Shown here: positions 12,695-58,805 of the stretch, piece after piece
Position numbering within the stretch: position 1 is the stretch's first letter
Layout: every line of letters starts with the position of its first letter
IMG/VR virus record: IMGVR_UViG_3300024503_000015
Coordinates: 206,182 to 270,181 of that record
DNA length: 64,000 nt
Source of the DNA: a virus
Reading direction: 5' to 3' (one strand)
The notes under the pieces: generated by a model
Told to the model about the DNA's origin: nothing
Database searches by the model: none
The model's input: the letters and a program-made list of their open reading frames with translations, nothing else
Translations under genes and position numbers: made by a program

Positions 12695-13314
12695 TCACGT
12701 TTCTCAATTACTTTATCTGCAAGTCCATATTCAACAGCCTGTTGTGCAGATAAGAATGTATCAAACTTCATGTCGCCAAACATTTCGTCATAGGTTTTAC
12801 CTGCCGTATTGTGTTTAACATACAATTCAGTTAGACGTTTGTTGATACGCTGACTTTCCTCGTAAGTACGTTTAGCATCTTCGAACTGTAGTTCTTGTAC
12901 GTGTACGCTACCACGTGTGCCAGGAGTTCCTGAACTAACACGATGAATCATTGTGCGACTTTCTGGCAATACAAATCGTTTACCTTTTGCACCAGCAGAC
13001 GCTAGGAATGATCCCATACTTGCGGCCTGCCCAACTACGTAAGTGGCAACATCTGGTTTGATAAACTGCATGGTATCGTAAATAGCCAGTCCCGCAGTTA
13101 CACTTCCACCAGGACTGTTAATAAACAGACTAATGTCTTTTTCGCTATTCTCACTTTCGAGGAATAGCAGTTGTGCCACAATCACACTGGCTGAATGTTC
13201 ATTGACGTCGGTGTCTAACATAATTACACGATCCTTTAATAGACGTGAATAAATGTCATAGGCACGTTCGCCTTTGTTTGTGGACTCTACTACCATTGGC
13301 ACCAAATGTGGCAT
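12691..13314 (-). CDS. clpP: ATP-dependent Clp protease proteolytic subunit ClpP
   Basis: Canonical ClpP with [14 protein letters not shown], catalytic Ser in GQAASMGSF and His in MIHRVSSG. Confidence 0.85.
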
Positions 13315-33541: not shown

Positions 33542-33616
33542 TGGTCCCGCTACTACGAATCGAACGTAGACTTACTCTTTAGGAGAGAGTCGTTCTATCC
33601 ATTGAACTATAGCGAG
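33542..33616 (-). tRNA. tRNA-Arg (anticodon CCT)
   Basis: Hand-folded cloverleaf. Acceptor CTCGCTA/TAGCGGG, T-arm CTACG-TTCGATT-CGTAG, anticodon loop CTCCTAA, encoded CCA. Confidence 0.6.
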
Positions 33617-33626
33617 GGAGGGAATT

Positions 33627-33734
33627 TGGTGTGACCGGGAGGGTTCGAACCTCCAAGGACGGCATATCGCCTAGTCCCGACCCACGGAGTGTTTCACAAC
33701 AGTCCTGGAGCTCTGCCTATTCGCTCACGGTCAC
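33627..33734 (-). tRNA. atypical 108 nt tRNA-like gene with ~50 nt structured insert in the anticodon/variable region
   Basis: Perfect acceptor GTGACCG/CGGTCAC, D-arm, T-arm GGAGG-TTCGAAC-CCTCC and CCA. Middle has AGGAC...GTCCT enclosing GNRA-capped hairpins. No canonical anticodon loop. Confidence 0.35.
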
Positions 33735-33765
33735 ATACTAAGTATATAACCTTTTCAGCAGTTTG

Positions 33766-34221
33766 TCAACGGGTTATGAGGTATTCGTAGTTCACTGTGT
33801 TGTCGTTTTCTTGCAACACACAGGCACCATTTCTGATATGGAACTTGTAGGCCATTTCAGTTTTTGGGCTAAGTGTTACAAAACGATTAACAGTTGGGAA
33901 AAGTTCTTTTATTTGATCCACTACACCAAAAAGTAGCTCTGCGGCCGCACCCGGCGCATAACTCCAAATTGTATAGAAGATTGCTGTAGTTGGTTCTGTG
34001 GGTGTTTTAGCCAAATCTTCAACAGTTGTTGGCACAAAATCGTGCAGACTAACACAGACCATTGCACGTGGTTTTTCGCCTTCTACAGTGGTGGCGACAA
34101 ATCTGCTACCGCTAACACGAAATTCTTTGGGAATTTCTGGACGTACTGGATCATCCTTGATATAGTCAAGTAATGGATTAGTAGTTTCTCTGATTAATGT
34201 TAGCATATAACTATTTAGCAT
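33766..34221 (-). CDS. hypothetical protein embedded in tRNA array
   Basis: 151 aa ORF between tRNA genes. Confidence 0.45.
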   Translation of the reverse strand: MLNSYMLTLIRETTNPLLDYIKDDPVRPEIPKEFRVSGSRFVATTVEGEKPRAMVCVSLHDFVPTTVEDLAKTPTEPTTAIFYTIWSYAPGAAAELLFGVVDQIKELFPTVNRFVTLSPKTEMAYKFHIRNGACVLQENDNTVNYEYLITR

Positions 34222-34244
34222 TTAGTGGGCAGATTATGGTGTTA

Positions 34245-34319
34245 TGGTGGTAACGGTGAGATTCGAACTCACACCTTGCTCCGTATGAAGGAGGTGCACG
34301 ACCATTATGCTACGTTACC
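34245..34319 (-). tRNA. tRNA-Met (anticodon CAT; Met or lysidine-Ile not distinguishable)
   Basis: Acceptor GGTAACG/CGTTACC, T-arm GTGAG-TTCGAAT-CTCAC, anticodon loop TTCATAC, CCA. Confidence 0.6.
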
Positions 34320-34858
34320 AGATTATTAGTAAGATGTCCCGAGAGTTTTGGTTTGGGTAAGGCCATCCGACGGTGCGATTCGTCCCTCTCTTTGTCTAGC
34401 CCAACATGAAGTTCTTGTAGTCTCAATCCGCTCACCTTGCACCGGCGCTTGATACATATACTCTACAGCATTAAAGTTTATAACTTCAATTAACAAAAAC
34501 TTCCGATCTTTGTTAACTCCTTGCGGATGCTTTTAGAACCTTAACTACTTACTAATAAAAGGGGTGGAGAGAGAAAGGCAAGTAATAGACTGGACAATGT
34601 ACAAGCGGGCTCTATAAAGATACCCTTAACAAGTCACAAGGCGCAAAGCACAGGGACCTGTATATTTCCAGTTAGCAACTCACAAAGTCGATTAATATAT
34701 AGAACTGGTTCACACAAGCACGAAACGTTTTCAAGACGTTTTGCCAGTAGTTGATGTTCGGTCTCTATAAGAGATCAAACCTTAGGCATGTAGCCTAAGT
34801 CTGTCTATCCTAATCTCCTTCTCTACTCCAGGCTCGGGCTTTCGCCTTTGCCAAAACT

Positions 34859-34932
34859 TGGTTGCGGGACCTGGAATCGAACCAGGATCTAGAGCTTATG
34901 AGACTCTTGAGTTACCGTTTCTCTATCCCGCG
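34859..34932 (-). tRNA. tRNA-Met (anticodon CAT) with C1-A72 mismatch, initiator-like
   Basis: Acceptor CGCGGGA/TCCCGCA with an unpaired 1-72, anticodon stem-loop AGAGT-CTCATAA-GCTCT, T-arm CCTGG-TTCGATT-CCAGG, CCA. Confidence 0.55.
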
Positions 34933-35269
34933 ATAACTTTATAGGTGCTCTCTGTTCGACTCGAACGAAACCTGCTGAGCTCCTTATCTTCCTGGCACTT
35001 TCGGTGGGTAGTCGACTTAGCACCTAACTCGTGTTATCCAGTGTAGTTCAGCTCAGAGAGCATTTATAAAGTGTCTAGCCACTCCCACCACAGGAGCCCT
35101 AAACCGAGCTGTTACTCTGTCCACTAGCCTTTCCATTTAGACGGTGCTGAGGTCCGCCTTTGTGATTTCTCAAGTCGCTTTAAACAAGCCTTGCGGTAGA
35201 TCCAATGCACCGAGCCATTAAGGTGTAGCAATTACCTAACTCTATCACGCTGAGTTAACGCGGGGTCTG

Positions 35270-35842
35270 TTACAGTAAACCTTCTGCTTGCAGAACTGCT
35301 TCTGTTTTGTCAGACAATTGGATAGTTGTCTGAACATTTAACTCTAGGATTTCATCCTGAAGTTTTTGTTTCTGCTTTTTAGCAGTTGCCACTCTACGAC
35401 GGAATCCGTCTAGATCTTCACGAGTGAGCACACTAGTGTCTACTGTGTCGTTGTAGCCATAGATGCTACGACGGTTTTCGCTTTTGTCGTTACGGATCTT
35501 GTCCAAACGACCTGCTACAACCTTTGCGCTTTCGCGAACGGTCTTACTAGCCAATCCGTTGTAGAATTGGATTTGTTTTTCTAGATGTGCAACATCGGCC
35601 AATCTAGTGTCGATTCTAACTTCTGTGTTAGCACCGCTGACACTTTTACGAATCTCGTAAAGTGCTTCCACTAACGCATCTCTGCGTGTAAGGTTGTCGC
35701 AGAGTGTTCCTGCAACTTTGGAAATTTCTTGTTCCGCTTCTTGGAACTCGTTGATTTTTACTGTGGTCTCAAACTGGAAACCTTTGACGGTATCGTTGAT
35801 ACTGTTCTGAAGTGCATTTGCCTTACGTAGGGAGATATTCAT
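35270..35842 (-). CDS. hypothetical coiled-coil protein
   Basis: Trimmed to ATG 35842 so it does not overlap tRNA-Gly. Confidence 0.45.
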   Translation of the reverse strand: MNISLRKANALQNSINDTVKGFQFETTVKINEFQEAEQEISKVAGTLCDNLTRRDALVEALYEIRKSVSGANTEVRIDTRLADVAHLEKQIQFYNGLASKTVRESAKVVAGRLDKIRNDKSENRRSIYGYNDTVDTSVLTREDLDGFRRRVATAKKQKQKLQDEILELNVQTTIQLSDKTEAVLQAEGLL

Positions 35843-35908
35843 TTGTTTTTCCTTTAATGTTTCTATTATACAATCTTTTAAATCTAAATCAATGCCTTTT
35901 GGCAAAAC

Positions 35909-35984
35909 TGGAGCGGGAGACGAGGTTCGAACTCGCGACATTTACCTTGGCAAGGTAATGCTCTACCAACTGAGCTACTCCCGC
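35909..35984 (-). tRNA. tRNA-Gly (GCC)
   Basis: GCGGGAG/CTCCCGC, D-arm GCTCAGTTGGTAGAGC, anticodon TTACC-TTGCCAA-GGTAA, CCA. Confidence 0.7.
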
Positions 35985-36032
35985 ATATGAAGAACCTAAG
36001 GCAAAGTTTATAACTTATCCAAAGGCCATATA

Positions 36033-36108
36033 TGGTACACGGTACGGGAATCGAACCCGTCTTACTGACGTGAAAGGCCAGTGTCCTAAACCGATAGACG
36101 AACCGTGC
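36033..36108 (-). tRNA. tRNA-Glu (TTC)
   Basis: Acceptor GCACGGT/ACCGTGT, anticodon loop CTTTCAC, T-arm ACGGG-TTCGATT-CCCGT, CCA. Confidence 0.65.
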
Positions 36109-36114
36109 ATTACT

Positions 36115-36190
36115 TGGCTCCCCAGGGTGGGATCGAACCACCGACACCCTGATTAACAGTCAGGTGCTACTACCGCTGAGCTACTAGGGA
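36115..36190 (-). tRNA. tRNA-Asn (GTT)
   Basis: TCCCTAG/CTGGGGA, anticodon loop CTGTTAA, T-arm GGTGG-TTCGATC-CCACC, CCA. Confidence 0.7.
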
Positions 36191-36197
36191 ATAAACT

Positions 36198-36272
36198 TGG
36201 TACCTGGTGACAGTTTCGAACTGCCGACCCTCTCGGTGTAAACGAGACGCTCTACCACTGAGCTAACCAGGC
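36198..36272 (-). tRNA. tRNA-Val (TAC)
   Basis: GCCTGGT/ACCAGGT, anticodon loop TTTACAC, CCA. Confidence 0.7.
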
Positions 36273-36282
36273 AAACTAACAT

Positions 36283-36359
<77 letters not shown>

Positions 36360-36364
36360 AATGA

Positions 36365-36440
36365 TGGAGCGGGAGGCGAGAGTTGAACTCGTCTATTTCA
36401 GTTTGGAAGACTGACGTGTAACCACAAACACTTCACCCGC
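36365..36440 (-). tRNA. tRNA-Gly (TCC)
   Basis: GCGGGTG/CTCCCGC (one mismatch), anticodon TCAGT-CTTCCAA-ACTGA, CCA. Confidence 0.6.
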
Positions 36441-36446
36441 ATATTT

Positions 36447-36530
36447 TGGTGCCCCAGGAGAGACTCGAACTCTCACGGCTCTCGCCACTGGCTTCTAAGA
36501 CCAGCGTGTCTACCATTCCACCACCAGGGC
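36447..36530 (-). tRNA. tRNA-Leu (TAG), type II
   Basis: Anticodon loop CTTAGAA, 13 nt variable arm, T-arm GAGAG-TTCGAGT-CTCTC, CCA. Confidence 0.65.
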
Positions 36531-36531
36531 A

Positions 36532-37335
36532 TTAACTGACAATACTATTTAAGTATTCCTGAATTGTCGTTGCAATTTTTTCTTGCACAGACAATTTAAT
36601 TTTTGCATTCTCACCATTAGCACTCATATACTGTTTTCCGTATTCAGTACAATCTATACCAGTGTGCATAAACTCTTTAAAAATTTCTGAGTTGTCAGGA
36701 TTAGGATCTCCAAACCTAACAGTCGTCCATTTAATATTTTGAGAATCTAAAAACTTAATTAACATATTGTAACCATTTCTATGTCTACGAATATGCCAAT
36801 CTTTGCTTTGACTTTTTTGAAAAGCAATACCGTTTAATCGCTTTTTATGAACTTCAATTGGATATCTATCTGGATTCCATTCTCCGTCTACATAATTTTC
36901 ACGTTCAAATACATATCGTTGATTGTTATATTTGAAACTGTGTGCTATATGACTAAACGTGTAATCTGTAACTAATACATGATCCGGTTTAGGATTCTCT
37001 GCTAGGTACTGTTTTAATCTTTTGTGATGACCTATAAAATGTCCACCGTTAATAGATATATTAACTACATTGGAAACATTTAAGAAATTAGGCCATGCGG
37101 CTTTTTGTTCTTCTTCCCATAGATAATGCCAAACAACATTTTCCATATTGCCATTGGGCATAGGTGTTGTAACATTGTTTTCTTTTCTATGTTTTAGATA
37201 CCATTTAAAAACACTTCTAAAATCATTATGGAAACGTAGACTCCAAGTCCTCGGAGCATCGTCGTTGACTATGTCACCAGCCAAACAATTATTGCCATTA
37301 CTTTGGCAATCTCCTAAAATTAAAAGTGTTTTCAT
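36532..37335 (-). CDS. hypothetical protein embedded in tRNA array
   Basis: 267 aa ORF. LLILGDCQSNG N-terminus, possibly SGNH-like. Confidence 0.5.
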   Translation of the reverse strand: MKTLLILGDCQSNGNNCLAGDIVNDDAPRTWSLRFHNDFRSVFKWYLKHRKENNVTTPMPNGNMENVVWHYLWEEEQKAAWPNFLNVSNVVNISINGGHFIGHHKRLKQYLAENPKPDHVLVTDYTFSHIAHSFKYNNQRYVFERENYVDGEWNPDRYPIEVHKKRLNGIAFQKSQSKDWHIRRHRNGYNMLIKFLDSQNIKWTTVRFGDPNPDNSEIFKEFMHTGIDCTEYGKQYMSANGENAKIKLSVQEKIATTIQEYLNSIVS

Positions 37336-37349
37336 ATTAATAGTTATCT

Positions 37350-37426
37350 TGGCGCACCGTAGGGGACTTGAACCCCTGGCCTCCGACGTGACAGGCCGGC
37401 GCTCTGACCAACTGAGCTAACGGTGC
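37350..37426 (-). tRNA. tRNA-Asp (GTC)
   Basis: GCACCGT/ACGGTGC, anticodon CCGGC-CTGTCAC-GTCGG, T-arm AGGGG-TTCAAGT-CCCCT, CCA. Confidence 0.7.
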
Positions 37427-37564
37427 AAATTCTATTCTGAAACACACTAACCAACTACCAGAAGCATTTATAATGCCGTTATTCGGTTCGAGCTAATGTG
37501 TTTTAGAATAGTGCTAACGCTGAGATTATACGTTAGCCAATAGTGCCTCTAGCATTATAGTCAG

Positions 37565-37798
37565 CCTTGCGAGCCAACCTTCTCTAGACATCCACATAAG
37601 CCATTACTGTACCTATGTCCACTATCAGCATCGCCGTTTTTAAAGACAGGCAGTAGTCTTGTCGCCATATGCTATTCTACGCTATCTACTCCGTTGACCT
37701 TGCGAGCCATTCAGCGGCGCTAACCACTTACGAAACTTCCAGCATAAACAGATTTCACCTTGCGAGCTACGTCTGACTCGATTACCTTGCGGCTCGAG
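37565..37798. repeat. four dispersed copies of CCTTGCGAGC(C) motif in an ORF-free spacer
   Basis: Copies at 37565, 37698, 37758 and 37785. Related CCTTGCGG copies at 34521, 35180 and 38183. Confidence 0.5.
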
Positions 37799-37844
37799 TA
37801 TTAGATGCTTTTCACATATGACCGAGGCAGTCTTTGCATTTTAT

Positions 37845-37916
37845 AATCGATAGTTGGGATCGAACCAACAGTCCATTGCTTAAGAGGCAATTGCGTTACC
37901 ATTACGCTATATCAAA
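37845..37916 (-). tRNA. tRNA-Lys (CTT)
   Basis: Anticodon ATTGC-CTCTTAA-GCAAT, T-arm GTTGG-TTCGATC-CCAAC. No encoded CCA. First acceptor pair weak. Confidence 0.55.
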
Positions 37917-38566
37917 CCTACCGCGATGAGCTGCCTCTGTTGCTCAATAACCTTTTGGATTACTGAATACAACTCACCACATACCTTTTGTCTCGCGGAC
38001 TACTCAGTGATATTTCACGATCAATGTCCTGCATCAAAACAGTCCACTAACCATTAATATTGCATACAAGCCCTTAGGAGCGACCCCTTGGACAAATACA
38101 CTACCCTTTCTCATACCAATTCGCAAGTTGGTTTTGTTAGGAAGTCAGCACCACCCGTTACTTTTCATGCACCCTGGTTCCCTTGCGGGCCAGTCGATAC
38201 ACATTCTTTCCCTAACACTTGCTTCATTGTTACATCCACCGGTCTTCTCAGTGAACGCTACCTCGCGGTAGTGAGCAGGCTTGTTTACATGAACCATTAC
38301 TGGCGGAGTTGCGTAGGCTTACCTCCTTTGGGTTGATCACTCAACTTATTCTTCGTCAACGGCGAACCGCCAACAGGATAATAAACTACCCTTAAATTTT
38401 TACCATTAAAAAATAACATTACACCCTATGGGATGAAACGTATTTCTGAGTGGAGTTCGATTCTCCTCATAAGCCATTGTTCACGGTTTTCTCAGAAGGG
38501 TAAGATGGCCTTATCCTTCATAAGTCTATGCGTCCATAGACGATACCCGTCAATGCTATTTCTTAA

Positions 38567-38652
38567 TGGTGGATGCGGCTGGAGTCGAACCAGCAGTGCC
38601 GTAAGGCGGCGGATTTACAGTCCACTGGGGTTACCAATTTTCCTACACATCC
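38567..38652 (-). tRNA. tRNA-Tyr (GTA), type II
   Basis: GGATGTG/CGCATCC, anticodon GTGGA-CTGTAAA-TCCGC, long variable arm, CCA. Confidence 0.6.
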
Positions 38653-38739
38653 ATATCTGCTTGAAATTTTTAAAGAACTAGGTTAATTTCTTAACTAGTC
38701 TCTATTGTATATGAACTTTAGAAACTAGTCAAGACATTT

Positions 38740-38834
38740 TGGCAGTGAGTAAGGGATTCGAACCCTTGATCCCCGTTTTTGCAGGAATGCCTTCTTAGCA
38801 GGAAGGTGCCTTCGACCAGCTCGGCCAACTCACT
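38740..38834 (-). tRNA. tRNA-Ser (GCT), type II
   Basis: AGTGAGT/ACTCACT, anticodon CCTTC-CTGCTAA-GAAGG, long variable arm, CCA. Confidence 0.65.
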
Positions 38835-38878
38835 ATATTTGTATTATACGATCAACTGTTAAACAAGTCAACACCTTT

Positions 38879-38968
38879 TGGCCGAAGCGGTGAGATTCGA
38901 ACTCACGGACCCTTTCGGATCGTCTGTTTTCAAGACAGGTGCAATAAACCGGACTCTGCCACGCTTCG
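38879..38968 (-). tRNA. tRNA-Ser (TGA), type II
   Basis: CGAAGCG/CGCTTCG, anticodon CCTGT-CTTGAAA-ACAGA, long variable arm, CCA. Confidence 0.65.
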
Positions 38969-39014
38969 TTGTTTTACTTGTATAATTCGTTGTAGATAGA
39001 ATCTGCTACAAATG

Positions 39015-39092
39015 TGGTACCCCTGCTCCGATTCGAACGGAGAGAACTTCTCCTTTTGAGAGAGACGACTTTACCAATTTGTCCACAGGGGT
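39015..39092 (-). tRNA. tRNA with anticodon CAA (Leu-decoding) but short type-I variable loop
   Basis: ACCCCTG/CAGGGGT, anticodon TCTCT-CTCAAAA-GGAGA, 6 nt variable loop, CCA. Identity uncertain. Confidence 0.45.
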
Positions 39093-39097
39093 ATATC

Positions 39098-39171
39098 TGG
39101 TGCTCAAGGAAAGAATCGAACTTTCGATTGTGTCGTACCAAGACACTGGTATACCATTTACCTACAAGAGC
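39098..39171 (-). tRNA. tRNA-Thr (GGT)
   Basis: Anticodon GTGTC-TTGGTAC-GACAC. Acceptor stem has two U-U mismatches. CCA. Confidence 0.5.
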
Positions 39172-39173
39172 CT

Positions 39174-39245
39174 TGGCGCCTCTGAGTAGATTCGAACTAC
39201 TATAACCTGGTTTAGAAGACCTGGCACTGCTCCATCAGCAGAGGC
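39174..39245 (-). tRNA. tRNA-Arg (TCT)
   Basis: GCCTCTG/CAGAGGC, anticodon loop CTTCTAA with one A-A mismatch in the stem, CCA. Confidence 0.5.
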
Positions 39246-39246
39246 A

Positions 39247-39323
39247 TGGTACCCTTGGTTGGATTCGAACCTACACACAACGGATTTTAAATCCATTCGC
39301 ATTACCAATTAGCGTACAAGGGC
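39247..39323 (-). tRNA. tRNA with anticodon TAA (Leu-decoding) but type-I architecture
   Basis: GCCCTTG/CAAGGGT, anticodon ATGGA-TTTAAAA-TCCGT, 5 nt variable loop, CCA. Confidence 0.45.
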
Positions 39324-39330
39324 ATAATTA

Positions 39331-39406
39331 TGGTGCCGCCCCTTGGGATCGAACCAAGTTCCTCGGTGCTTCAAACCGGTGCAATGACCACATTTGCTAA
39401 AGCGGC
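39331..39406 (-). tRNA. tRNA-Phe (GAA)
   Basis: GCCGCTT/GGGCGGC (G-U pairs), anticodon loop TTGAAGC, T-arm CTTGG-TTCGATC-CCAAG, CCA. Confidence 0.6.
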
Positions 39407-39412
39407 GATATT

Positions 39413-39487
39413 TGGGGTGAAGCCGGGAATCGAACCCTGCCTTACTGTTTCACAGACAGCCGTGCGGACCACTACACTAGCAACACC
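39413..39487 (-). tRNA. tRNA-His (GTG) with extra 5' G-1
   Basis: G-1:C73 pair, anticodon GCTGT-CTGTGAA-ACAGT. Acceptor has two U-U mismatches. Confidence 0.6.
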
Positions 39488-39489
39488 AT

Positions 39490-39566
39490 TGGCCGGCCCT
39501 GAGAGACTCGAACTCCCAACCTCCAGTTTCGAAGACTGGCACTCTAATCCATTGAGTTAAGGACCG
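39490..39566 (-). tRNA. tRNA-Arg (TCG)
   Basis: CGGTCCT/AGGGCCG, anticodon CCAGT-CTTCGAA-ACTGG, CCA. Confidence 0.6.
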
Positions 39567-39573
39567 TTAAAAT

Positions 39574-39647
39574 TGGCAGGCCTACCAGGACTCGAACCTG
39601 GAACGACTGAGTCAAAGTCAGTTGTGTTACCATTACACCATAGGCCA
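39574..39647 (-). tRNA. tRNA-Gln (TTG)
   Basis: Anticodon ACTGA-CTTTGAC-TCAGT, T-arm CCAGG-TTCGAGT-CCTGG, weak 1-72 pair, CCA. Confidence 0.6.
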
Positions 39648-39873
39648 ACAGATTGAATTTGTAAGTAGTTGCCCCATCGTTATAGCAACCATTCACCCAT
39701 GTATATAAAGCCGGCTGGGACTCGGTACGTCACTTGGGATACTAGTCCAGTTAGCAACCAATCTGCAGGGATCTTCCGATCCCCCGGGAGTTGAACCCGT
39801 CCCCTTTTACTATTAAGGTAGTTCGAACTTACCTACAATAGCGTGACATTCTCTTGCTGACACTTACAAAACT

Positions 39874-39946
39874 TGGTGCCCCAGGATGGAATCGAACCAC
39901 CACACCCTGCTTACAAAACAGGACCTCTACCACTAAGGATACAAGG
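39874..39946 (-). tRNA. tRNA-Thr (TGT)
   Basis: GCCCTTG/CTGGGGC, anticodon CCTGT-TTTGTAA-GCAGG, CCA. Confidence 0.6.
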
Positions 39947-39953
39947 GCAAAAT

Positions 39954-40031
39954 TGGTCTCCACGGTACGATTCGAACGTACAGCCTCCTGACTCCAGATC
40001 AGGCCGTCTACCAGATTGACATTACGCAGAG
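39954..40031 (-). tRNA. tRNA of uncertain identity (loop TCTGGAG, C at position 33)
   Basis: Good acceptor CTCTGCG/CGTGGAG and T-arm GTACG-TTCGAAT-CGTAC with CCA. Anticodon loop is non-canonical. Confidence 0.35.
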
Positions 40032-40041
40032 ATAAAAATAA

Positions 40042-40117
40042 TTGCGACCGAAGGACTCGAACCTTCGCGGTAATCTAGAATGCCCCGGCAAGGCCGGTTA
40101 ACCCACCATTGTCGCAA
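40042..40117 (-). tRNA. tRNA-like element whose anticodon arm is replaced by a 5 bp/3 nt hairpin
   Basis: Perfect acceptor TTGCGAC/GTCGCAA, D-arm and T-arm CGAAGG-TTCGAGT-CCTTCG. Middle CCGGC-CTT-GCCGG hairpin. No CCA. Confidence 0.35.
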
Positions 40118-40120
40118 ATT

Positions 40121-40195
40121 TGGTGGAGGCCGAGGAAATCGAATCCTTCTAGACATCTTCCTTGCAAGGGAAGACCGTAGCCCACTACTGCCCCC
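40121..40195 (-). tRNA. tRNA-Ala-like (TGC) with truncated D-arm and degenerate T-arm
   Basis: Anticodon CTTCC-CTTGCAA-GGAAG, T-loop TTCGATT with a stem mismatch, D region only 12 nt, CCA. Confidence 0.35.
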
Positions 40196-40280
40196 AAATT
40201 GGTGTTAGTTTCTATACCACCCATTGAAACTAACAAACATTGAGAGAACATGGATGAACCCACAAGATCTCTATTTGCTC

Positions 40281-40355
40281 TGGTATAGCGTACGGGGATC
40301 GAACCCGCCTAGTCACCTTGAAAGGGTGATGACCTCCCCAGAAGTCGAACGCTAT
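40281..40355 (-). tRNA. tRNA-Glu (TTC), second copy
   Basis: ATAGCGT/ACGCTAT, anticodon TCACC-CTTTCAA-GGTGA, CCA. Confidence 0.55.
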
Positions 40356-40361
40356 GTAAAT

Positions 40362-40435
40362 TGGTTCCTGGACCGAGAATTGAACTCAGAATGACCGGTT
40401 ATCAGCCGATTGTTATACCATTTAACTATCCAGGA
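40362..40435 (-). tRNA. tRNA-Ile (GAT)
   Basis: TCCTGGA/TCCAGGA, anticodon ATCGG-CTGATAA-CCGGT, CCA. Confidence 0.65.
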
Positions 40436-40617
40436 ATAATACTATACAAAAAGAAACTAACGACAATGCGCTATGCACCCAGAGTCTATAGTTCCTGGCT
40501 GTGGTTAGTTTGTTTTTATACACTACCATATGGAAGCACTCTTATGCCTTTTTCGTCATAAGATGGTGGCCCGTCCTTACTACTGACGCTATGCGACCAG
40601 TTAAGAATGCTTTCATA

Positions 40618-40692
40618 TGGTAGGGGCACAGAGAATCGAACTCTGATTTACGGGTTAAAAGCCCGCTACTTTAACCATTAAGTTATACCCCC
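40618..40692 (-). tRNA. tRNA-Lys (TTT)
   Basis: GGGGGTA/TGCCCCT, anticodon GCGGG-CTTTTAA-CCCGT, CCA. Confidence 0.65.
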
Positions 40693-40695
40693 ATA

Positions 40696-40771
40696 TGGTC
40701 CCTGCTGTGAGATTCGAACTCACACCTCATTGATTAAGAGTCAAGTGCGCTACCATTGACGCTAAACAGGG
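40696..40771 (-). tRNA. tRNA-Lys (CTT), second copy
   Basis: CCCTGTT/AGCAGGG, anticodon loop CTCTTAA, T-arm GTGAG-TTCGAAT-CTCAC, CCA. Confidence 0.5.
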
Positions 40772-40942
40772 TTGTACGTATTGATTTGATTTTACGTGCC
40801 AACCCTAGACCATACGGGAGATCTAGAGTGACACTAACGTTTAGCACGTTTCATGCTACTCTCCTTTTAATATTTTTTCAAAACTTGATACAACACGAAC
40901 ATTATAACTAACACTACAAGTACTGCCATAATATTCTCCTTA

Positions 40943-41032
40943 TGGTCCCCCGTTGAGGAATCGAACCTCATCCTGGACCTTATCTAGATTAATCGGTTAT
41001 AAGCCGACCTGCTCTCCATGAGCTAACGGGGG
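40943..41032 (-). tRNA. type II (long variable arm) tRNA with anticodon TAT
   Basis: Perfect acceptor CCCCCGT/ACGGGGG, anticodon GTCGG-CTTATAA-CCGAT, ~21 nt variable arm, CCA. Confidence 0.45.
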
Positions 41033-41040
41033 ATATAACC

Positions 41041-41118
41041 TGGAGCAACGGGTCAGATTTGAACTGACGGTTTTACGGATTTGCAATCCGTTGCATTGGG
41101 CCTCTCTGCCACCGTTGC
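41041..41118 (-). tRNA. tRNA-Cys (GCA)
   Basis: GCAACGG/CCGTTGC, anticodon ACGGA-TTGCAAA-TCCGT, T-arm GTCAG-TTCAAAT-CTGAC, CCA. Confidence 0.65.
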
Positions 41119-41123
41119 ATTAT

Positions 41124-41198
41124 TGGCGTACCCCCAGGGACTCGAACCCCGACTAGCAGTTTTGGAGACTGTCGTGCTGCCATTAACACTAGGGATAC
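41124..41198 (-). tRNA. tRNA-Trp (CCA)
   Basis: GTATCCC/GGGGTAC, anticodon loop CTCCAAA, CCA. Confidence 0.65.
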
Positions 41199-41584: not shown

Positions 41585-41620
41585 AACAAAAAACCCTGGG
41601 TTTTTAGTCCAGGGTTCTTA
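41585..41620 (-). terminator. rho-independent terminator
   Basis: CCCTGG...CCAGGG hairpin followed by TTTTTTGTTTTG on the minus strand. Confidence 0.6.
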
Positions 41621-41642
41621 AAAGTTATTGTGTATGTTACTG

Positions 41643-41804
41643 TTAACTTACACGATCCTCCAAGAACCCTACGATAATCTCAGGTGTACGATCATTACCT
41701 AGACCTAGCCCGACATTACTAAACTGTGACCAATAGGCGGACATACATGCCGGCGCTTTGGCTTGTTTAGATATCGTTTGTCTATGTAAACTAATCGTTT
41801 GCAT
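41643..41804 (-). CDS. small hypothetical protein
   Basis: 53 aa ORF directly upstream of a minus-strand terminator. Confidence 0.2.
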   Translation of the reverse strand: MQTISLHRQTISKQAKAPACMSAYWSQFSNVGLGLGNDRTPEIIVGFLEDRVS

Positions 41805-42041
41805 TTTGTTTCTCTTTTTCTTACCTTCTTAAAAGTTGTAGCGGAATTGCTACTGTCTTTGTATTGTAATGCCTTTCAACATCTTTGTCAACATCTTTTT
41901 GTCTTTTTTGGACAACCTAATGTTTTGTGGAAAGTGATTGCTTTACAATATTTGTATTATATGAGTATTTATAAAACTTGTCAATACCTATGTTGAAATG
42001 TGGCGATTTTGCAACATTTTGAAAACCGCCACACTTTTGTA

Positions 42042-42560
42042 TTAACCGTTTAGTACTTTTGCTAGACTATTGATCACTGCGGCAATACGTCCGATGTCAC
42101 GAAGTTGTTCTACGGTGTAGCCTTCCTTCTTCAATGTTTCGTAGTGCGCCTTAACACAGAAATGACACTTGCCAACAATACTTGCGGCAAGACTGTATGC
42201 TTCAAAGCGAGCCTTGGTAGTTCCGCCATGGCTTGCGATAGCGTTCATGCGTAACTGTGCTGGCAAGCCCTTTAGTTGCTCATCGTCTGCCATCTCAACA
42301 TATGGATACCAAACGTTGTTCTGTGCCATAATTGAACCAGCGGTCATCGCGGCATCACGTTCTTTTTCGTCTGTGATGTTGCTCATGATGAAACTAATCA
42401 ATTTTCCATTGCCGGTGCTCATAGCCGCGGCCAATGCACAACCTTCTGCTTCTACAACATCTGATAGTGTACTACGCTTGATTACTGCATCCAGATTTAG
42501 TTTTGTGTCCTTGGCGTATTCTGGTAAACCTTCTTTTAATTGATCAACCCATTGTGTCAT
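42042..42560 (-). CDS. ahpD: alkylhydroperoxidase AhpD (carboxymuconolactone decarboxylase family)
   Basis: KCHFCVKAH CxxCxxxH catalytic motif. Confidence 0.8.
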   Translation of the reverse strand: MTQWVDQLKEGLPEYAKDTKLNLDAVIKRSTLSDVVEAEGCALAAAMSTGNGKLISFIMSNITDEKERDAAMTAGSIMAQNNVWYPYVEMADDEQLKGLPAQLRMNAIASHGGTTKARFEAYSLAASIVGKCHFCVKAHYETLKKEGYTVEQLRDIGRIAAVINSLAKVLNG

Positions 42561-42994
42561 AGTGTGTCTCCTTTAGTTGCTTTGGCTATGCTTTTATAGC
42601 CTTTGTAAGTTGGGTGTACGTGATCCGGGCTAGTTTCGTGCTTTCTAGCATCTATTACAAAGTCCTTGTATTTTTCTGCTACTGCAAGAACTGCCCGTCT
42701 CTTATCGTCCTTGATATTAGGTACAATCCAATAAACACGAGTGGCGTCTACTAGTTGTCTTAGACTGTCTAGTTCCTCCACTGTGTTTATTTTTGCTGTA
42801 TCGTTTGACCCTAGACTAATGATTACATTTTTTGCCTGTGTAGTGCCCTGAGTGTGTAACACATGACGATTAACATAGTCATAACTGTTAATGCCACTCT
42901 TAGCACGAGTAACACATTCTGTACGAACTTGTCCTACTCCTACTGCTAGGCTATCGCCTAGGATTAAACAATCAAGCATAATTGATCCTATCAA
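42557..42994 (-). CDS. SGNH/GDSL hydrolase
   Basis: LILGDSLAVG block I and DHVHP DxxH block V. Confidence 0.55.
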   Translation of the reverse strand: MIGSIMLDCLILGDSLAVGVGQVRTECVTRAKSGINSYDYVNRHVLHTQGTTQAKNVIISLGSNDTAKINTVEELDSLRQLVDATRVYWIVPNIKDDKRRAVLAVAEKYKDFVIDARKHETSPDHVHPTYKGYKSIAKATKGDTL

Positions 42995-43530
42995 AGAGTT
43001 TCGCCGCCTACTGTACGGTTACAAGCGCACAACTCACCAGTTTGTAGCGCATCAAGAATACGTAAAGTTTCTTCTGGGCTACGACCAACGTTCAAGTTGT
43101 TGACAGTAACGTGCTGGATAACGTTCTCTGGGTCAACAATAAATGTAGCACGTAGAGCCGCACCTGCTGGAGCATAAAATACACCCAACTGCTCAATCAA
43201 TGACAACTCGCCACGCTGTGTGTCTGCAAATTGTGTATGTGTAATTTTCTGTAAGTCTGGGTGTGCTTTTTGCCATGCGATTTTACAAAACTCGTTATCT
43301 GTGCTACCTGTTAGCAATACTGCGTCACGGTCAGCAAAGTCACCTGCTAGTTTATCGTAGGCTACAATCTCTGTAGGGCAAACGAATGTGAAGTCCTTTG
43401 GGTAGTAAACGATTACTTTCCACTTGCCAGCAAAACTTTCATCTGTAATGTCAAAGAAAGCATCTTCTGGTTGTCCTGGCTTAACACCAGTAATTGCGAA
43501 TTTTTCTAATTTATGTCCAACTGTTTTCAT
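42991..43530 (-). CDS. ahpC: peroxiredoxin AhpC/Prx
   Basis: FTFVCPTE peroxidatic Cys motif and C-terminal GELCAC resolving Cys. Confidence 0.85.
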   Translation of the reverse strand: MKTVGHKLEKFAITGVKPGQPEDAFFDITDESFAGKWKVIVYYPKDFTFVCPTEIVAYDKLAGDFADRDAVLLTGSTDNEFCKIAWQKAHPDLQKITHTQFADTQRGELSLIEQLGVFYAPAGAALRATFIVDPENVIQHVTVNNLNVGRSPEETLRILDALQTGELCACNRTVGGETL

Positions 43531-43659
43531 TTGTTTCTCCTTGTGTGTGTTTGAAAACTATAACAACTCTTCGTTGTATGTGTATATTATATATCCTATT
43601 AAAATGCAAAATCAATAGGTTTTTCCAATAATTATTTTAATAACGCTTATAGGTTTTTT

Positions 43660-43695
43660 CAATAACAAAAGGGCCCGAAGGCCCTTTATTAATTT
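43660..43695. terminator. bidirectional terminator hairpin GGGCCCGAAGGCCC
   Basis: GC hairpin with T-runs on both strands. Same hairpin recurs at 52114. Confidence 0.55.
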
Positions 43696-43703
43696 TGGTT
43701 TGA

Positions 43704-44264
43704 TTAGAAACCGTACTTGTAACCAACACTTACTACGTTACTGTTGATATCACCTTCCTGGCGATCAAATCCAAGAAAGGCTGTACCATTTTTAGTAACA
43801 CCGTAGTCAGCACCAATTCTCCAAGTGCGTGTCATGTAGTTGTCGCCACTGGAGAAACCAGTACGATAACGATAACCAGCTCTTAGACCAAAACGATCAT
43901 TAACTGCAATCTTAACACCTGGTTCAACAGAGTAGTAATCGAAACGATTACCAACTTGCCATTTCTCACCGACTGCACCGCGAACATATCCGCTTAGTTT
44001 GTCTGTAATACCAACTGTTGGAGTAACACCAACTTCTAGTTTACTAGAGTTTGCACCGTTACCATTTGTGTACATGTTTTCACCTTTTAGGTCAACACCA
44101 ACATTTGATGCGGCTTGTGTACCGATAGTAAACTCATAACCTTGTTGGTTGGCTCCTGTGCCACGTGGATCTTCGAATTTATATTCCAATCCAACTACGT
44201 TACCTGCCGCAGAAGCGACACCGGCAACAGCGGCAAACAGAGTTGCAATAACAAATTTTTTCAT
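43704..44264 (-). CDS. outer-membrane beta-barrel protein with signal peptide
   Basis: Signal peptide MKKFVIATLFAAVAGVASA. Alternating amphipathic beta-strands and a C-terminal aromatic (YKYGF). Confidence 0.6.
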   Translation of the reverse strand: MKKFVIATLFAAVAGVASAAGNVVGLEYKFEDPRGTGANQQGYEFTIGTQAASNVGVDLKGENMYTNGNGANSSKLEVGVTPTVGITDKLSGYVRGAVGEKWQVGNRFDYYSVEPGVKIAVNDRFGLRAGYRYRTGFSSGDNYMTRTWRIGADYGVTKNGTAFLGFDRQEGDINSNVVSVGYKYGF

Positions 44265-46321: not shown

Positions 46322-46395
46322 TGGTGCGCTAGACAGGAATCGAACCTGCTATCGGGAGTTTAGAAGTCCCTGCCTATCCATTGAGCTTCAAGCGC
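46322..46395 (-). tRNA. isolated tRNA, best fold gives anticodon CTA (amber-suppressor-like); alternative register TCT
   Basis: Acceptor GCGCTTG/CTAGCGC, T-arm GCAGG-TTCGATT-CCTGT, CCA. Anticodon stem GGGA/TCCC with loop TTCTAAA. Confidence 0.4.
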
Positions 46396-52104: not shown

Positions 52105-52135
52105 AATAAAAAAGGGCCCGAAGGCCCTTTGGTTG
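52105..52135 (-). terminator. rho-independent terminator (second copy of GGGCCCGAAGGCCC hairpin)
   Basis: Hairpin followed by TTTTTTATTTT on the minus strand. Confidence 0.55.
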
Positions 52136-52395
52136 TTTGGGTTACAAGGTAAGTCCTACCCCGGAGTTGCAGTTTCTTAGGCTGCTACTAGACCATTGTC
52201 GGCTGTGAAGCCTTCAACAGTGAAGTACTCAAATGTAGATGCGTTTGCATTTACTAGTTTTGCTTGATTTACGGTCATCGCCTACCGTGTTGCCGTCTCT
52301 ACTATCTACCCCTGTCGAAACCATGGCAGGCCCATCATAAAAACACAATACCAAAGTAAATTTACAATGAATACCAAAGTAAATTTATGTCCTTA

Positions 52396-52435
52396 TGGTG
52401 GACCTGGCGGGAGTCGAACCCGCGTCCAGAAGTCC
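52396..52435 (-). other. tRNA 3'-half-like minihelix (T-arm + acceptor + CCA) lacking D and anticodon arms
   Basis: GCGGG-TTCGACT-CCCGC T-arm, then CAGGTCC-A-CCA, with a complementary GGACTTC only 5 nt upstream. Confidence 0.3.
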
Positions 52436-52463
52436 TTCGCTTTGAAGGGATTACAACAATTCT

Positions 52464-53042
52464 TTAAACGCCTGCCTTTGCTAATGTGCCAAATATCCAA
52501 GGTTTTGGATCTAAGTCAATTGTCCAAGATGTCGGTTCATTTCTCATATCTTTTTTGTACACAATATTTATTTGGTCGTGTGTTAGTTTGACTAAGAAGC
52601 CGTCTGTTAATTGTTTTAGATTAGCCTTAACTGTTGCGTAATCTACAAAGGCAACAGCGAATGTTCCTTTAATTTGGACTATCATTAAATGATTAAAAAC
52701 TTTGTCTAGTGTAGTTCTTTGATTCTTACTTTCGTAAACATTTTTTAATTTAAGACTGATTGTCTTTTTAGGAGTTCCTGACTTTGCGTAGAACAAAGGT
52801 TCGTTGCCAGTTTTAACTTCTACGTCGCCATTGGTCCAATCGGTAAATTTTATATCGTAATCGCGAACGTCAGTCCACTCGATGTTCTTTTTATGATTAG
52901 ATAATTGCATTGCCGCAATAATGAATTTTTCTTTCATCATTCGATTTGTGGATTCATTTAATACTGTCTGATGACAGATGTTATTACAAGCATCTGAAAA
53001 CTTGTCAATATCTACCCAATCTAAAAATTCATTGTACTGCAT
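52464..53042 (-). CDS. hypothetical protein
   Basis: 192 aa ORF. Confidence 0.5.
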   Translation of the reverse strand: MQYNEFLDWVDIDKFSDACNNICHQTVLNESTNRMMKEKFIIAAMQLSNHKKNIEWTDVRDYDIKFTDWTNGDVEVKTGNEPLFYAKSGTPKKTISLKLKNVYESKNQRTTLDKVFNHLMIVQIKGTFAVAFVDYATVKANLKQLTDGFLVKLTHDQINIVYKKDMRNEPTSWTIDLDPKPWIFGTLAKAGV

Positions 53043-57361: not shown

Positions 57362-58066
57362 ATGTCAACAATTATAGCCACCTTGGTGATGGTTCAAATC
57401 ACCATAGCCTGTGTTACCCTTTATCTTCATAGAGGACAAACACACAGAGCAGTAACATTCCATCCAGCAGTAAATCACTTCATGCGTTTTTGGCTTTGGC
57501 TTACAACAGGTATGGTTACCAAGCAATGGGTAGCAATACATCGCAAACATCATCAAGCCAGCGATACAGATTTAGATCCGCACAGTCCACAAGTTTACGG
57601 TATTAAAACTGTGCTATTCAAAGGCTGGAGTTTATATCACTCTGCCAGTAAAGATACCGCAATGGTTGAAAAGTTAGGAGTAGGTACTCCTGATGATTGG
57701 CTAGAGCGTAATGTTTACACCCTACACAGCCGCCTTGGAATTCTCTTAATGTTAGTCATAGACTTATTGTTCTTTGGTCCTTGGGGTATTCTTGTGTGGG
57801 GCATTCAAATGATATGGATTCCATTCTGGGCCGCTGGTGTTATTAATGGACTGGCACATTGGTGGGGATATCGTAATACTGACACCAAAGACACTAGCCG
57901 TAACTTATGGCCTTGGGCTATTTGGATCGGTGGTGAGGAACTACATAACAATCATCATGCCGATGGGGCCAATGCTAGTTTCCGTCAACGTTGGTTTGAA
58001 TTAGATATCGGTTGGATCTATATTAAGGTACTACGCTTCTTTAACCTTGCACAGGTTAGGAATTAA
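57362..58066 (+). CDS. membrane fatty-acid (acyl-CoA/acyl-lipid delta-9-like) desaturase
   Basis: Three His boxes HRGQTH, HRKHH and HNNHH, with multiple transmembrane helices. Confidence 0.8.
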   Translation: MSTIIATLVMVQITIACVTLYLHRGQTHRAVTFHPAVNHFMRFWLWLTTGMVTKQWVAIHRKHHQASDTDLDPHSPQVYGIKTVLFKGWSLYHSASKDTAMVEKLGVGTPDDWLERNVYTLHSRLGILLMLVIDLLFFGPWGILVWGIQMIWIPFWAAGVINGLAHWWGYRNTDTKDTSRNLWPWAIWIGGEELHNNHHADGANASFRQRWFELDIGWIYIKVLRFFNLAQVRN

Positions 58067-58805
58067 CAGCAATAAACTCTGCTTCAGGAATACGTGTCTT
58101 AGTATTCTTACTTCCTAGTACTACTACAATTCTGCGTCCTATTTCTGTATCCAACATCATTACTATGCAACCTCCACTGGCTCTTATGTAGCCAGTTTTG
58201 CTGACAATAAATTCATGACGCTTGCCAATAATTGGATTAGTATTATTAAAGATAAACCACTTTTTCTTTATCTTAATTTTAACCTGCGGTGTGCGTGATG
58301 CTTCAATAATCTCTGCGTAGTTCTTTGCCGCTAGAACTAGTTTAATTAAATCAGTGGCTGTGCTTACATTAAACACACTAAGCCCTGTAGGTTCGACATA
58401 CTTTGTGTCGTGCATACCTAACAGATGTGCTTTAGTATTCATTGCTCTAACACAGGCATCCTTACCATTAGGATAGTATTGACACAGTAGATCAGCCGCT
58501 TTGTTGTCGCTGTGTACTAATGCTAGTTGTATTGTTTCGGCTCGGGTATACTTACCGATTTGTTCATCTAAGTTTTGATTAGCATCTAACACAACCATTG
58601 CCGTCATTAGTTTAGTAATGCTGGCAATACTACGCTGTTGATCTATGTTTTCGCTTTGAATAATTCTGCCGGATTCATCGGCCACGAGCCAGCTCTGAGC
58701 GGTGATAGACAGAGGTTTGGCAGTGGCGGCGCTTGTTTGCCCATGATGTAAAAAGGCAAAAAATACCAATATAGATATAACTCTACACATCTGTCTATTG
58801 TACAC
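58056..58805 (-). CDS. D-alanyl-D-alanine carboxypeptidase (S11, PBP5/DacA-like) with signal peptide
   Basis: SITK (SxxK), SDN and KTG motifs. N-terminal signal peptide. Confidence 0.8.
   Translation of the reverse strand: MYNRQMCRVISILVFFAFLHHGQTSAATAKPLSITAQSWLVADESGRIIQSENIDQQRSIASITKLMTAMVVLDANQNLDEQIGKYTRAETIQLALVHSDNKAADLLCQYYPNGKDACVRAMNTKAHLLGMHDTKYVEPTGLSVFNVSTATDLIKLVLAAKNYAEIIEASRTPQVKIKIKKKWFIFNNTNPIIGKRHEFIVSKTGYIRASGGCIVMMLDTEIGRRIVVVLGSKNTKTRIPEAEFIAVNS

Follow-up and report, generated by a model that had tools for sequence, protein, structure and literature searches.

A predicted lipoyl-dependent AhpC-AhpD peroxide reductase pair, with a probable cargo gene of SGNH type, in an uncultured freshwater jumbo phage

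The closest described systems are the AhpC/AhpD/SucB(DlaT)/Lpd peroxide reductases of Mycobacterium tuberculosis and Burkholderia thailandensis (PMC6626918, PMC3141380). Biochemical work on the B. thailandensis proteins showed that Cys57 of AhpC is peroxidatic, that Cys171 and Cys173 are resolving, and that Cys131 and Cys134 of AhpD reduce AhpC; electrons pass from NADH through Lpd and SucB to AhpD, with TrxC as a poorer alternative (PMC6626918). In M. tuberculosis AhpD, the proton relay consists of Cys130, Cys133, His137, Glu118, and His132 (PMC3141380). Escherichia coli and Salmonella instead pair AhpC with AhpF. Peroxiredoxins also are known as auxiliary metabolic genes of phages, where they are viral thiol peroxidases of cellular origin that presumably limit oxidative damage (e.g., prxU of Microcystis phage MaAM05), and virus-encoded ahpC was reported in Lake Erie Microcystis viral populations (PMC12542629). 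A full-text literature search found no paper describing a phage-encoded AhpD or AhpC-AhpD pair, and the genes go unmentioned in recent surveys of freshwater jumbo phages. Here we describe such a pair, with a gene for an SGNH-type hydrolase between its members, in a stretch of 64,000 nt (the window) from IMG/VR record IMGVR_UViG_3300024503_000015; the source genome is 264-355 kb or larger.

The locus resembles those of M. tuberculosis and B. thailandensis in its adjacent ahpC and ahpD genes, in an AhpC with FTFVCP and a C-terminal C-x-C, and in an AhpD of similar length (∼170-177 aa in the bacteria) with a C-terminal CxxC and the Glu and His of the proton relay. It differs in being phage-encoded, in having ahpC and ahpD split by the SGNH gene, and in lacking a cognate SucB or Lpd among the annotated open reading frames (ORFs) of the window. 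The phage AhpD has CHFC (as in Cupriavidus) rather than the CSHC of M. tuberculosis AhpD, and it scores below the TIGR00777 cut-off. With the E. coli/Salmonella system the locus shares an AhpC of the Prx1/AhpC subfamily and the same 2-Cys chemistry, but it has no AhpF and its reductase is AhpD. In contrast to the known phage peroxiredoxins, to which it is ∼30% identical (prxU, for example), this AhpC comes with a dedicated reductase. Phage peroxiredoxin genes are already known; the addition made here is the whole AhpC-AhpD couple, kept under purifying selection.

An ORF scan revealed three close-packed minus-strand ORFs between 43530 and 42042.

42991 to 43530, minus strand: ahpC, 179 aa, with an AAGGAG ribosome-binding site upstream; predicted typical 2-Cys peroxiredoxin of the AhpD-dependent (M. 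tuberculosis/Burkholderia) type.
42557 to 42979, minus strand: predicted SGNH/GDSL-type hydrolase or acyltransferase, 140 aa from its ATG; apparent inserted cargo gene.
42042 to 42560, minus strand: ahpD (predicted alkylhydroperoxidase D, carboxymuconolactone decarboxylase (CMD) fold), 172 aa; its start overlaps the SGNH stop.

The gap between ahpC and the SGNH gene is 11 nt and contains an AGGA ahead of the SGNH ATG, and the SGNH stop and the ahpD start overlap as ATGA. By this arrangement the SGNH gene is predicted to be co-transcribed with and translationally coupled to ahpD. The mechanical ORF start of the SGNH gene, a TTG at 42994 that would give 145 aa, is disfavored relative to the ATG at 42979, which lies 7 nt downstream of AGGA and is used in metagenome gene calls and in all homologues. 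The G+C content is flat at ∼0.40-0.42 across the cassette and its flanks. The original prediction, made from the sequence alone, had placed a peroxiredoxin with FTFVCP, an AhpD with CxxCxxxH, and an intervening SGNH/GDSL hydrolase at 41643 to 43530 on the minus strand of a phage genome. All three tightly packed genes and both motifs are borne out; the interval holds for 43530 to 42042, but the remainder (41643 to 42041) is not AhpD and includes a separate 53-aa ORF.

Our preferred reading, to which we assign a probability of roughly 0.72, is that the locus is a true auxiliary metabolic operon carried by an uncultured jumbo phage of fresh water and encoding a lipoyl-dependent alkyl hydroperoxide reductase pair of the Burkholderiales/M. 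tuberculosis type together with independently derived SGNH cargo. Direct observations, described below, establish the identities of the genes, the conservation of their residues, the purifying selection on them, their phage context, and their variable synteny. As expected of auxiliary metabolic genes, these are cellular-type metabolic genes in a bona fide viral genome and under selection: dN/dS values (ratios of nonsynonymous to synonymous substitution rates) are 0.08-0.19, phage hallmarks surround the locus, and the locus occurs on many viral contigs.

The ahpC product matched Pfam AhpC-TSA (PF00578) with an E value of 3e-20 and 72.8 bits, well above the 26-bit cut-off. Its peroxidatic Cys51 lies in FTFVCP and its resolving Cys168 and Cys170 in ELCACN, and the PxxxTxxC active site and the conserved Arg are present (Pro44, Thr48, Cys51, and Arg127). 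The best matches in the PDB were to M. tuberculosis AhpC (2bmx, 1e-40; 7bz6, 8e-40); Cys51 aligns with the peroxidatic Cys of that protein, and ELC168AC170N aligns with ELCA(C/S)N of 2bmx and ELCPCN of Cupriavidus. Pro44, Thr48, Cys51, Arg127, Cys168, and Cys170 were all invariant among 79 distinct phage homologues. Against the AhpF-type equivalog TIGR03137 the protein scored 111.5 bits, far below the 272-bit cut-off, and it is therefore not of the E. coli type. PHROGs returned just a weak, function-less match. These features are those of a typical 2-Cys peroxiredoxin of the Prx1/AhpC subfamily and AhpD-dependent type, with a predicted peroxide-reducing activity in conjunction with AhpD.

The ahpD product also exceeded its family thresholds, with an E value of 1.6e-9 and 38 bits versus 23 for Pfam CMD (PF02627) and 32.3 bits versus 27.8 for the NCBIfam core domain TIGR00778. 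Its only strong relatives of solved structure were the M. tuberculosis AhpD entries (1gu9, 4e-23; residues 5-170 versus 3-168). In the site C132-H-F-C135-V-K-A-H139, Cys132, Cys135, and His139 align with Cys130, Cys133, and His137 of the M. tuberculosis protein, and Glu120 aligns with Glu118; these four residues were invariant in 86 distinct phage homologues. The catalytic cysteines on which the original prediction depended are thus conserved in both proteins and aligned with the M. tuberculosis catalytic residues. On the same strand, ahpC was directly upstream in 79 of the 80 best viral AhpD loci, and the remaining locus was cut at its end. No AhpD family in PHROGs matched, and nothing usable was obtained there for the SGNH protein; automatic annotation by JGI names the AhpD homologues "alkyl hydroperoxide reductase subunit D" or "lipoyl-dependent peroxiredoxin subunit D". 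The protein is identified as an alkylhydroperoxidase D of the CMD superfamily, and by analogy with the bacterial systems its reduction by a lipoamide-bearing E2, Lpd, and NADH is predicted.

To assess conservation and selection, 180 loci were fetched and distinct coding sequences were extracted for AhpC (79), the SGNH protein (70), and AhpD (86). Median pairwise dN/dS values were 0.08, 0.19, and 0.11, respectively, consistent with purifying selection on all three genes; dS was near saturation, so these values are approximate.

Enzymatic activity, reductant, timing of expression, host, and benefit to the phage are inferred from the homologous bacterial systems. In the mechanism that we propose, AhpC would reduce H2O2, organic hydroperoxides, and peroxynitrite at Cys51, and the resulting sulfenic acid would be resolved by Cys168/Cys170 of the partner subunit. 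The AhpC disulfide would then be reduced by Cys132-x-x-Cys135 of AhpD, with participation of Glu120 and His139, and AhpD would be recharged by the host lipoylated 2-oxoacid dehydrogenase E2 together with Lpd and NADH; thioredoxin of the host may offer another route. Transcribed from a predicted sigma70-like promoter, the operon would limit peroxide damage to the infected cell, probably a betaproteobacterium in sunlit, peroxide-containing fresh water, during phage replication. If the enzymes work as predicted, these phages tap the host lipoyl/NADH pool for peroxide detoxification during infection, which, if true, bears on the survival of infected cells in sunlit, H2O2-containing lake water until the large virion burst.

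Several points weigh against this reading. AhpD fell under the trusted cut-off of the full-length model TIGR00777 (115.4 versus 191.95 bits), though with an E value of 2e-33 over residues 5-171 of 172; that model appears to be tuned to closer relatives, and the Cupriavidus AhpD (51% identical) is itself annotated merely as a "carboxymuconolactone decarboxylase family protein". His132 of the M. tuberculosis proton relay is displaced by one position in the phage protein (CHFC versus CSHC). The phage His133 occurs in 83 of the 86 homologues, the Cupriavidus AhpD shares CHFC, and in PA0269 a Tyr is tolerated at the position equivalent to His132 (PMC3141380). The annotated ORFs of the window included neither a lipoyl carrier nor Lpd, and the reductant step therefore depends on the host. 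The original prediction had called the pair complete; AhpC and AhpD are indeed both present, but "complete" is an overstatement because AhpD must itself be recharged by host lipoylated SucB/DlaT, Lpd, and NADH (PMC6626918). The promoter assigned to ahpC is a consensus match only and, with 13 matches found in the region versus 9.7 expected, is weak evidence when taken alone. More generally, all of the functional claims rest on homology. Finally, the tight packing of the SGNH gene, its ATGA overlap, and its recurrence near AhpCD would also be expected of a real functional link, and shared ancestry is inseparable from selected linkage with the data used.

Profile searches that placed AhpC and AhpD above gathering left the SGNH ORF below it (Lipase_GDSL_2, 5e-6, 27.5 versus 32.9 bits; Lipase_GDSL, 22.5 versus 23.6), though it has GDS, GSND, and DxxH motifs and is predicted to fold like an SGNH enzyme. 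The protein had no NCBIfam match and no significant sequence match to any solved structure in the PDB. Blocks I, III, and V are represented by G8-D9-S10-L11, G57-S-N59-D, and D119-H-V-H122, which were invariant in 70 homologues, including those that are 44-54% identical. For the oxyanion-hole Gly of block II, Gly45 is unconserved, and Gly29, which is invariant in close homologues, is a candidate. Two cysteines, Cys4 (42968-42970) and Cys22 (42914-42916), likewise do not vary among the 70 homologues, even in the bacterial proteins of 44-46% identity; a structural disulfide, a metal site, and a redox switch are possible roles for them.

An AlphaFold2 model of the protein had a predicted local distance difference test (pLDDT) score of 80 and a predicted TM-score (pTM) of 0.79, with one of five models confident. 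Foldseek comparison of this model to the PDB gave 19 hits at E ≤ 1e-3, comprising 18 SGNH enzymes and one designed scaffold. The top match was the 155-residue C-terminal domain of the Staphylococcus aureus peptidoglycan O-acetyltransferase OatA (6vjp, TMq 0.75), followed by GDSL esterases, perhydrolytic acyltransferases, and platelet-activating factor (PAF) acetylhydrolase. Among viral models the best match was a stand-alone GDSL-like lipase of Providencia phage PS3, followed by SGNH domains of tail proteins. The modeled structure thus points to an SGNH fold. The protein resembles the OatA domain and the GDSL esterases of Proteus/Providencia T7-like phages in its size (∼140-155 residues), its GDS Ser, and its GxND and DxxH motifs, and it is 28-30% identical to the Proteus phage esterases; it differs from them in its two invariant cysteines, in having no significant sequence match to a solved structure, and in having no membrane or secretion signal. 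The position of the GDS motif (residues 8-10) leaves no space for a signal peptide, and the protein is presumably cytoplasmic. We regard the middle gene as encoding a minimal SGNH esterase or acyltransferase of probably independent origin, with its activity predicted from these motifs.

The relationship of this gene to its neighbors was examined by comparing 160 related viral loci, made up of the 80 best viral AhpD loci and 80 viral SGNH loci. Among the former, ahpC abuts ahpD (-3 to +20 nt) in ∼50, the SGNH gene lies between them in 19, and another insert is found in ∼10. A class II aldolase recurs among the other inserts, both in the presence and in the absence of SGNH; the remainder are a DOPA-dioxygenase-family protein, TerC, Bax-inhibitor-1, an IscS/NifS-like aminotransferase, cytochrome c, a NUMOD3 homing-endonuclease-like protein, and proteins of no assigned family.

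Relatives with inserts at the ahpC-ahpD junction: L011-L013, L020-L028, L103, L115, L116, L123, L125, L138, L140-L149, L157, and L172.

The 80 viral SGNH loci exhibited the orders AhpC-SGNH-AhpD, AhpC-X-SGNH-(X)-AhpD, and AhpC-AhpD-SGNH, as well as SGNH genes with AhpCD 3-4 kb away and SGNH genes without AhpCD within 5 kb. All homologues of ≤54% identity belong to the last group, and the stand-alone phage SGNH genes have heterogeneous neighbors. Bacterial SGNH relatives were found at only five loci of metagenome-assembled genomes (L014-L018), from Acetobacteraceae/Rhodospirillales, 44-46% identical; no match to AhpC or AhpD was detected within 4 kb on each side (∼0.5 kb downstream for L018). 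The bacterial genome scan used two short peptide patterns, by which absence elsewhere is unproven. The simplest reading of these comparisons is that the ancestral phage state was ahpC followed directly by ahpD, as in bacteria, and that the ahpC-ahpD junction is an insertion hot spot where SGNH is one of several cargo genes. The three genes do adjoin here, but the "one cassette" of the original prediction gives way to a variable insert between ahpC and ahpD, and the SGNH protein is not predicted to be an obligatory part of the peroxidase system.

The bacterial homologues of the SGNH protein (L014-L018, match at 4001-4400) are 190 aa long with a Pro-rich tail; in L014 the neighbors are a long membrane-protein-like ORF, two larger GDS-motif ORFs, and a large ORF, and by eye this locus resembles an envelope O-acylation cluster. 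In a 299-kb relative (L011/L012, 8300-12423), two radical-SAM genes and an Asp/Arg-hydroxylase-like gene are located just downstream of AhpC-aldolase-SGNH-AhpD, and an HNH endonuclease gene is just upstream.

An alternative account of this arrangement is that the three genes, joined by the class II aldolase in some relatives, constitute one functional module. In such a module the SGNH protein would act on peroxide-related esters, for example releasing hydroperoxy-acyl chains from oxidized lipids or hydrolyzing peracids, AhpC would reduce the products, and AhpD would recycle AhpC, in a manner comparable to the combined phospholipase and peroxidase of eukaryotic peroxiredoxin 6. The translational coupling of SGNH to ahpD by ATGA, its location within or next to AhpC-AhpD at about half of the 80 SGNH loci and at 19 of 79 AhpD loci, its purifying selection, and the invariance of Cys4 and Cys22 beside the catalytic triad all are as such a module would have them, as are the perhydrolytic acyltransferases and PAF acetylhydrolase among the fold matches and the fatty-acid desaturase encoded elsewhere in the window. 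These points are countered by the distribution of the gene: most phage AhpC-AhpD loci lack SGNH and have abutting genes, SGNH stands alone in many phages, AhpCD is not nearby for any homologue of ≤54% identity, the position of SGNH relative to AhpC and AhpD varies, and unrelated cargo occupies the same junction in other relatives. The bacterial SGNH homologues likewise have no AhpC or AhpD match in their fetched flanks, and the phage SGNH model is structurally closest to a peptidoglycan O-acetyltransferase domain. We consider the single-module account doubtful. Because the SGNH gene is tightly coupled in the window, co-expression is guaranteed, and a functional link to AhpC/AhpD is hence conceivable, though we hold it to be unlikely. 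Slightly less probable than the module itself is the more specific and bolder proposal that SGNH, joined in some relatives by the class II aldolase, cooperates with AhpC/AhpD to remove or repair oxidized esters such as lipid hydroperoxides and peracids, as a phage counterpart of peroxiredoxin 6, and more broadly that the junction is a dedicated "stress-gene islet" gathering redox and membrane-stress cargo (TerC, Bax-inhibitor-1, IscS-like, cytochrome c, and DOPA-dioxygenase-like).

The pair could alternatively have a phage-specific role rather than one in general detoxification: shielding oxidant-sensitive phage enzymes, blunting a host abortive response based on reactive oxygen species, or providing general disulfide reduction (AhpD) or redox-regulated chaperone activity (AhpC). 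Chaperone activity is well established for 2-Cys peroxiredoxins in general, and the junction cargo of relatives includes an IscS-like cysteine desulfurase, cytochrome c, TerC, and Bax-inhibitor-1, with radical-SAM genes nearby in one relative (L011/L012). Nevertheless, AhpC and AhpD are paired, and the complete set of peroxidatic and resolving residues is conserved, exactly as in the characterized bacterial peroxide reductases (PMC6626918), the sequences contain no pointer to a new partner, and none of the genes matched the PADLOC defense-system models. A specialized role of this kind seems improbable, to about the same degree as the three-gene module.

By comparison, the notion that the region is bacterial DNA (a chromosome, a prophage flank, or a mis-binned contig) with ahpC and ahpD as mere host genes is very remote: although Ralstonia phage YO375_1, flagged UNVERIFIED_ORG, carries the pair near its record end as a host flank would, the window itself encodes rIIA/rIIB, tail-fiber/baseplate-like proteins, a phage-type ligase, 31 clustered tRNAs, a GOLLD RNA, and mostly ORFans, the G+C content is uniform across cassette and flanks, identical synteny recurs on many independent metagenome contigs, and hundreds of IMG/VR contigs carry the pair.

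The preferred reading of a phage-borne peroxide reductase pair is consistent with the wider genomic context. The exact AhpC protein was found on many freshwater metagenome contigs of 78-264 kb with identical gene order, AhpD homologues of ≥81% identity were on contigs of up to 330-355 kb, and at least 577 IMG/VR viral contigs encode an AhpD relative. With thousands of metagenome proteins in addition, the AhpC-AhpD couple is widespread among uncultured jumbo phages of a highly abundant freshwater group, in which the junction between the two genes has repeatedly gained other stress-related genes. Megablast of the 3.1-kb locus against deposited phages gave no match; the phage lacks a close relative among sequenced phages, and the best relative of the window's rIIA was that of Xanthomonas jumbo phage XacN1 (29.5%). 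The ligase of the window is ATP-dependent. A lytic lifestyle, as stated in the original prediction, is plausible from rIIA/rIIB and the jumbo myovirus-like character of the 64 kb of genome seen. Overall, the locus is a sound yet unsurprising case of a virus borrowing host stress genes, and it represents no new kind of biology.

Among cellular relatives of the pair, a Cupriavidus gilardii plasmid has adjacent peroxiredoxin and CMD-family genes whose products are 67% and 51% identical to the phage proteins and include the identical VGKCHFCV site. Among plasmid-borne AhpDs, those of Burkholderiaceae were the nearest (47-50% identity versus 34-37% for Actinobacteria and Alphaproteobacteria). A search of 1.84 billion representative proteins with cluster look-up returned only metagenome proteins of ≤56% identity, so that the plasmid collection alone hinted at a donor taxon (Burkholderiaceae). 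The sole close match in deposited phages was Ralstonia phage YO375_1, whose adjacent pair is 65% and 50% identical, lies ∼1.5-2.6 kb from the record end, and is probably host flank. The Burkholderiaceae affinity of AhpC/AhpD, the tmRNA type described below, and a TctC-family gene in one relative suggest that the host is a betaproteobacterium.

The sequences around the three genes contain several candidate transcription signals.

43663 to 43691, minus strand: terminator-like hairpin (AAAGGGCCTTCGGGCCCTTT followed by TGTTATT; dG -14.6 kcal/mol, z -3.0) that closes the upstream outer-membrane protein (OMP) beta-barrel-like ORF; putative 5' boundary of the ahp unit.
43634 to 43662, minus strand: second sigma70-type promoter match upstream of ahpC, from the consensus scan.
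43595 to 43619, minus strand: dyad CCTATT-N13-AATAGG, a possible operator read from the sequence, overlapping the -35 element and spacer of the best promoter match.
43586 to 43615, minus strand: stronger of the two sigma70-type promoter matches ahead of ahpC (TTGATT-18-TATAAT), with a consensus-scan score of 10/12.
43563 to 43577, minus strand: small hairpin ACAAC-gaaga-GTTGT, located where the ahpC leader is predicted to begin; weak in the window itself (dG -4.0 kcal/mol).
41996 to 42036, minus strand: strong hairpin right after the ahpD stop (dG -20.5 kcal/mol, z -6.1; 0 of 200 shuffles fold as well); probable 3' end or stabilizer of the operon transcript.
41585 to 41984, minus strand: separate downstream unit outside the ahp genes, with two sigma70 matches, a 53-aa ORF, and a terminator.

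The ahpC promoter region is conserved among relatives. Of 53 distinct upstream sequences from close relatives, 27 contained a dyad of the form CTAT-N15/16-ATAG, versus 2.2 in shuffles; the sequences are related, so these counts are non-independent. The spacing of this CTAT/ATAG dyad (N13-N16) does not fit the OxyR consensus, ATAG-N7-CTAT. The B. thailandensis paper gives no site sequence for comparison, and relative to OxyR-type regulation the dyad is all that was seen at the phage locus. Per-sequence folding placed a leader hairpin of 5-7 bp at the same position in 40 of 40 relatives with 36 different sequences, a variation that looks like covariation. RNAalifold found no consensus structure for the ahpC leader, for which the MAFFT alignment was out of register.

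At the other end of the operon, the hairpin at 42036-41996 has no clear U-tract, and intrinsic termination there is inferred. It is nonetheless more likely to mark the 3' end than is the hairpin and U-run at ∼41618-41585 (dG -17 kcal/mol, z -2.7), which had been proposed as the terminator bounding the operon at 41585-41620. The latter hairpin is real, but it is separated from ahpD by two promoter matches and the 53-aa ORF, and it closes the separate small unit. The two downstream sigma70 matches are arranged in tandem and are near-consensus (41984-41956, 12/12; 41891-41863, 11/12). The 53-aa ORF (41804-41643, minus strand) was rejected as a cassette member on the basis of its own promoters, its poor conservation, and its lack of a family match; it was found only in near-identical contigs and weakly in L037/L099. 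These tandem promoters (41863-41984) drive only this ORF and are followed by a good terminator, and the 41585-41984 unit may represent not a protein gene but a strong early promoter unit or a small RNA.

Directly upstream of ahpC, at 43704-44264 on the minus strand, is the gene for a 186-aa protein with a signal-peptide-like N terminus and a sub-threshold OMP beta-barrel match (26.2 versus 28.7 bits); some relatives have homologues of 30-43% identity in the vicinity of AhpC. An array of 31 tRNA genes (33542-41198, minus strand) lies immediately downstream of the ahp locus, and in more distant relatives (e.g., L122, L138, L147, and L176) ahpC begins immediately after tRNA genes. A full-length GOLLD RNA (37517-37980, minus strand; Rfam RF02032, 207 bits versus a gathering threshold of 150) resides inside the array and encloses tRNA-Lys(CTT) at 37844-37917. 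A separate tRNA at 46322-46395 (minus strand) has a CUA anticodon, is amber-suppressor-like, and was called "Pyl" by ARAGORN. The window also encodes a permuted, two-piece tmRNA of betaproteobacterial type (52107-52549, minus strand; RF01850, 129 bits; RF04321, 138 bits) for which ARAGORN gave the tag peptide ANASTFEYFTVEGFTADNGLVAA. Other host-like genes in the window specify a ClpP protease (12691-13314, minus strand), a PTPS/QueD-like enzyme (3378-3935, minus strand), a D-Ala-D-Ala carboxypeptidase (58056-58805, minus strand), the fatty-acid desaturase (57362-58066, plus strand), and the UV-damage endonuclease UvdE (1472-2599, minus strand), the last of which fits a sunlit-water lifestyle.

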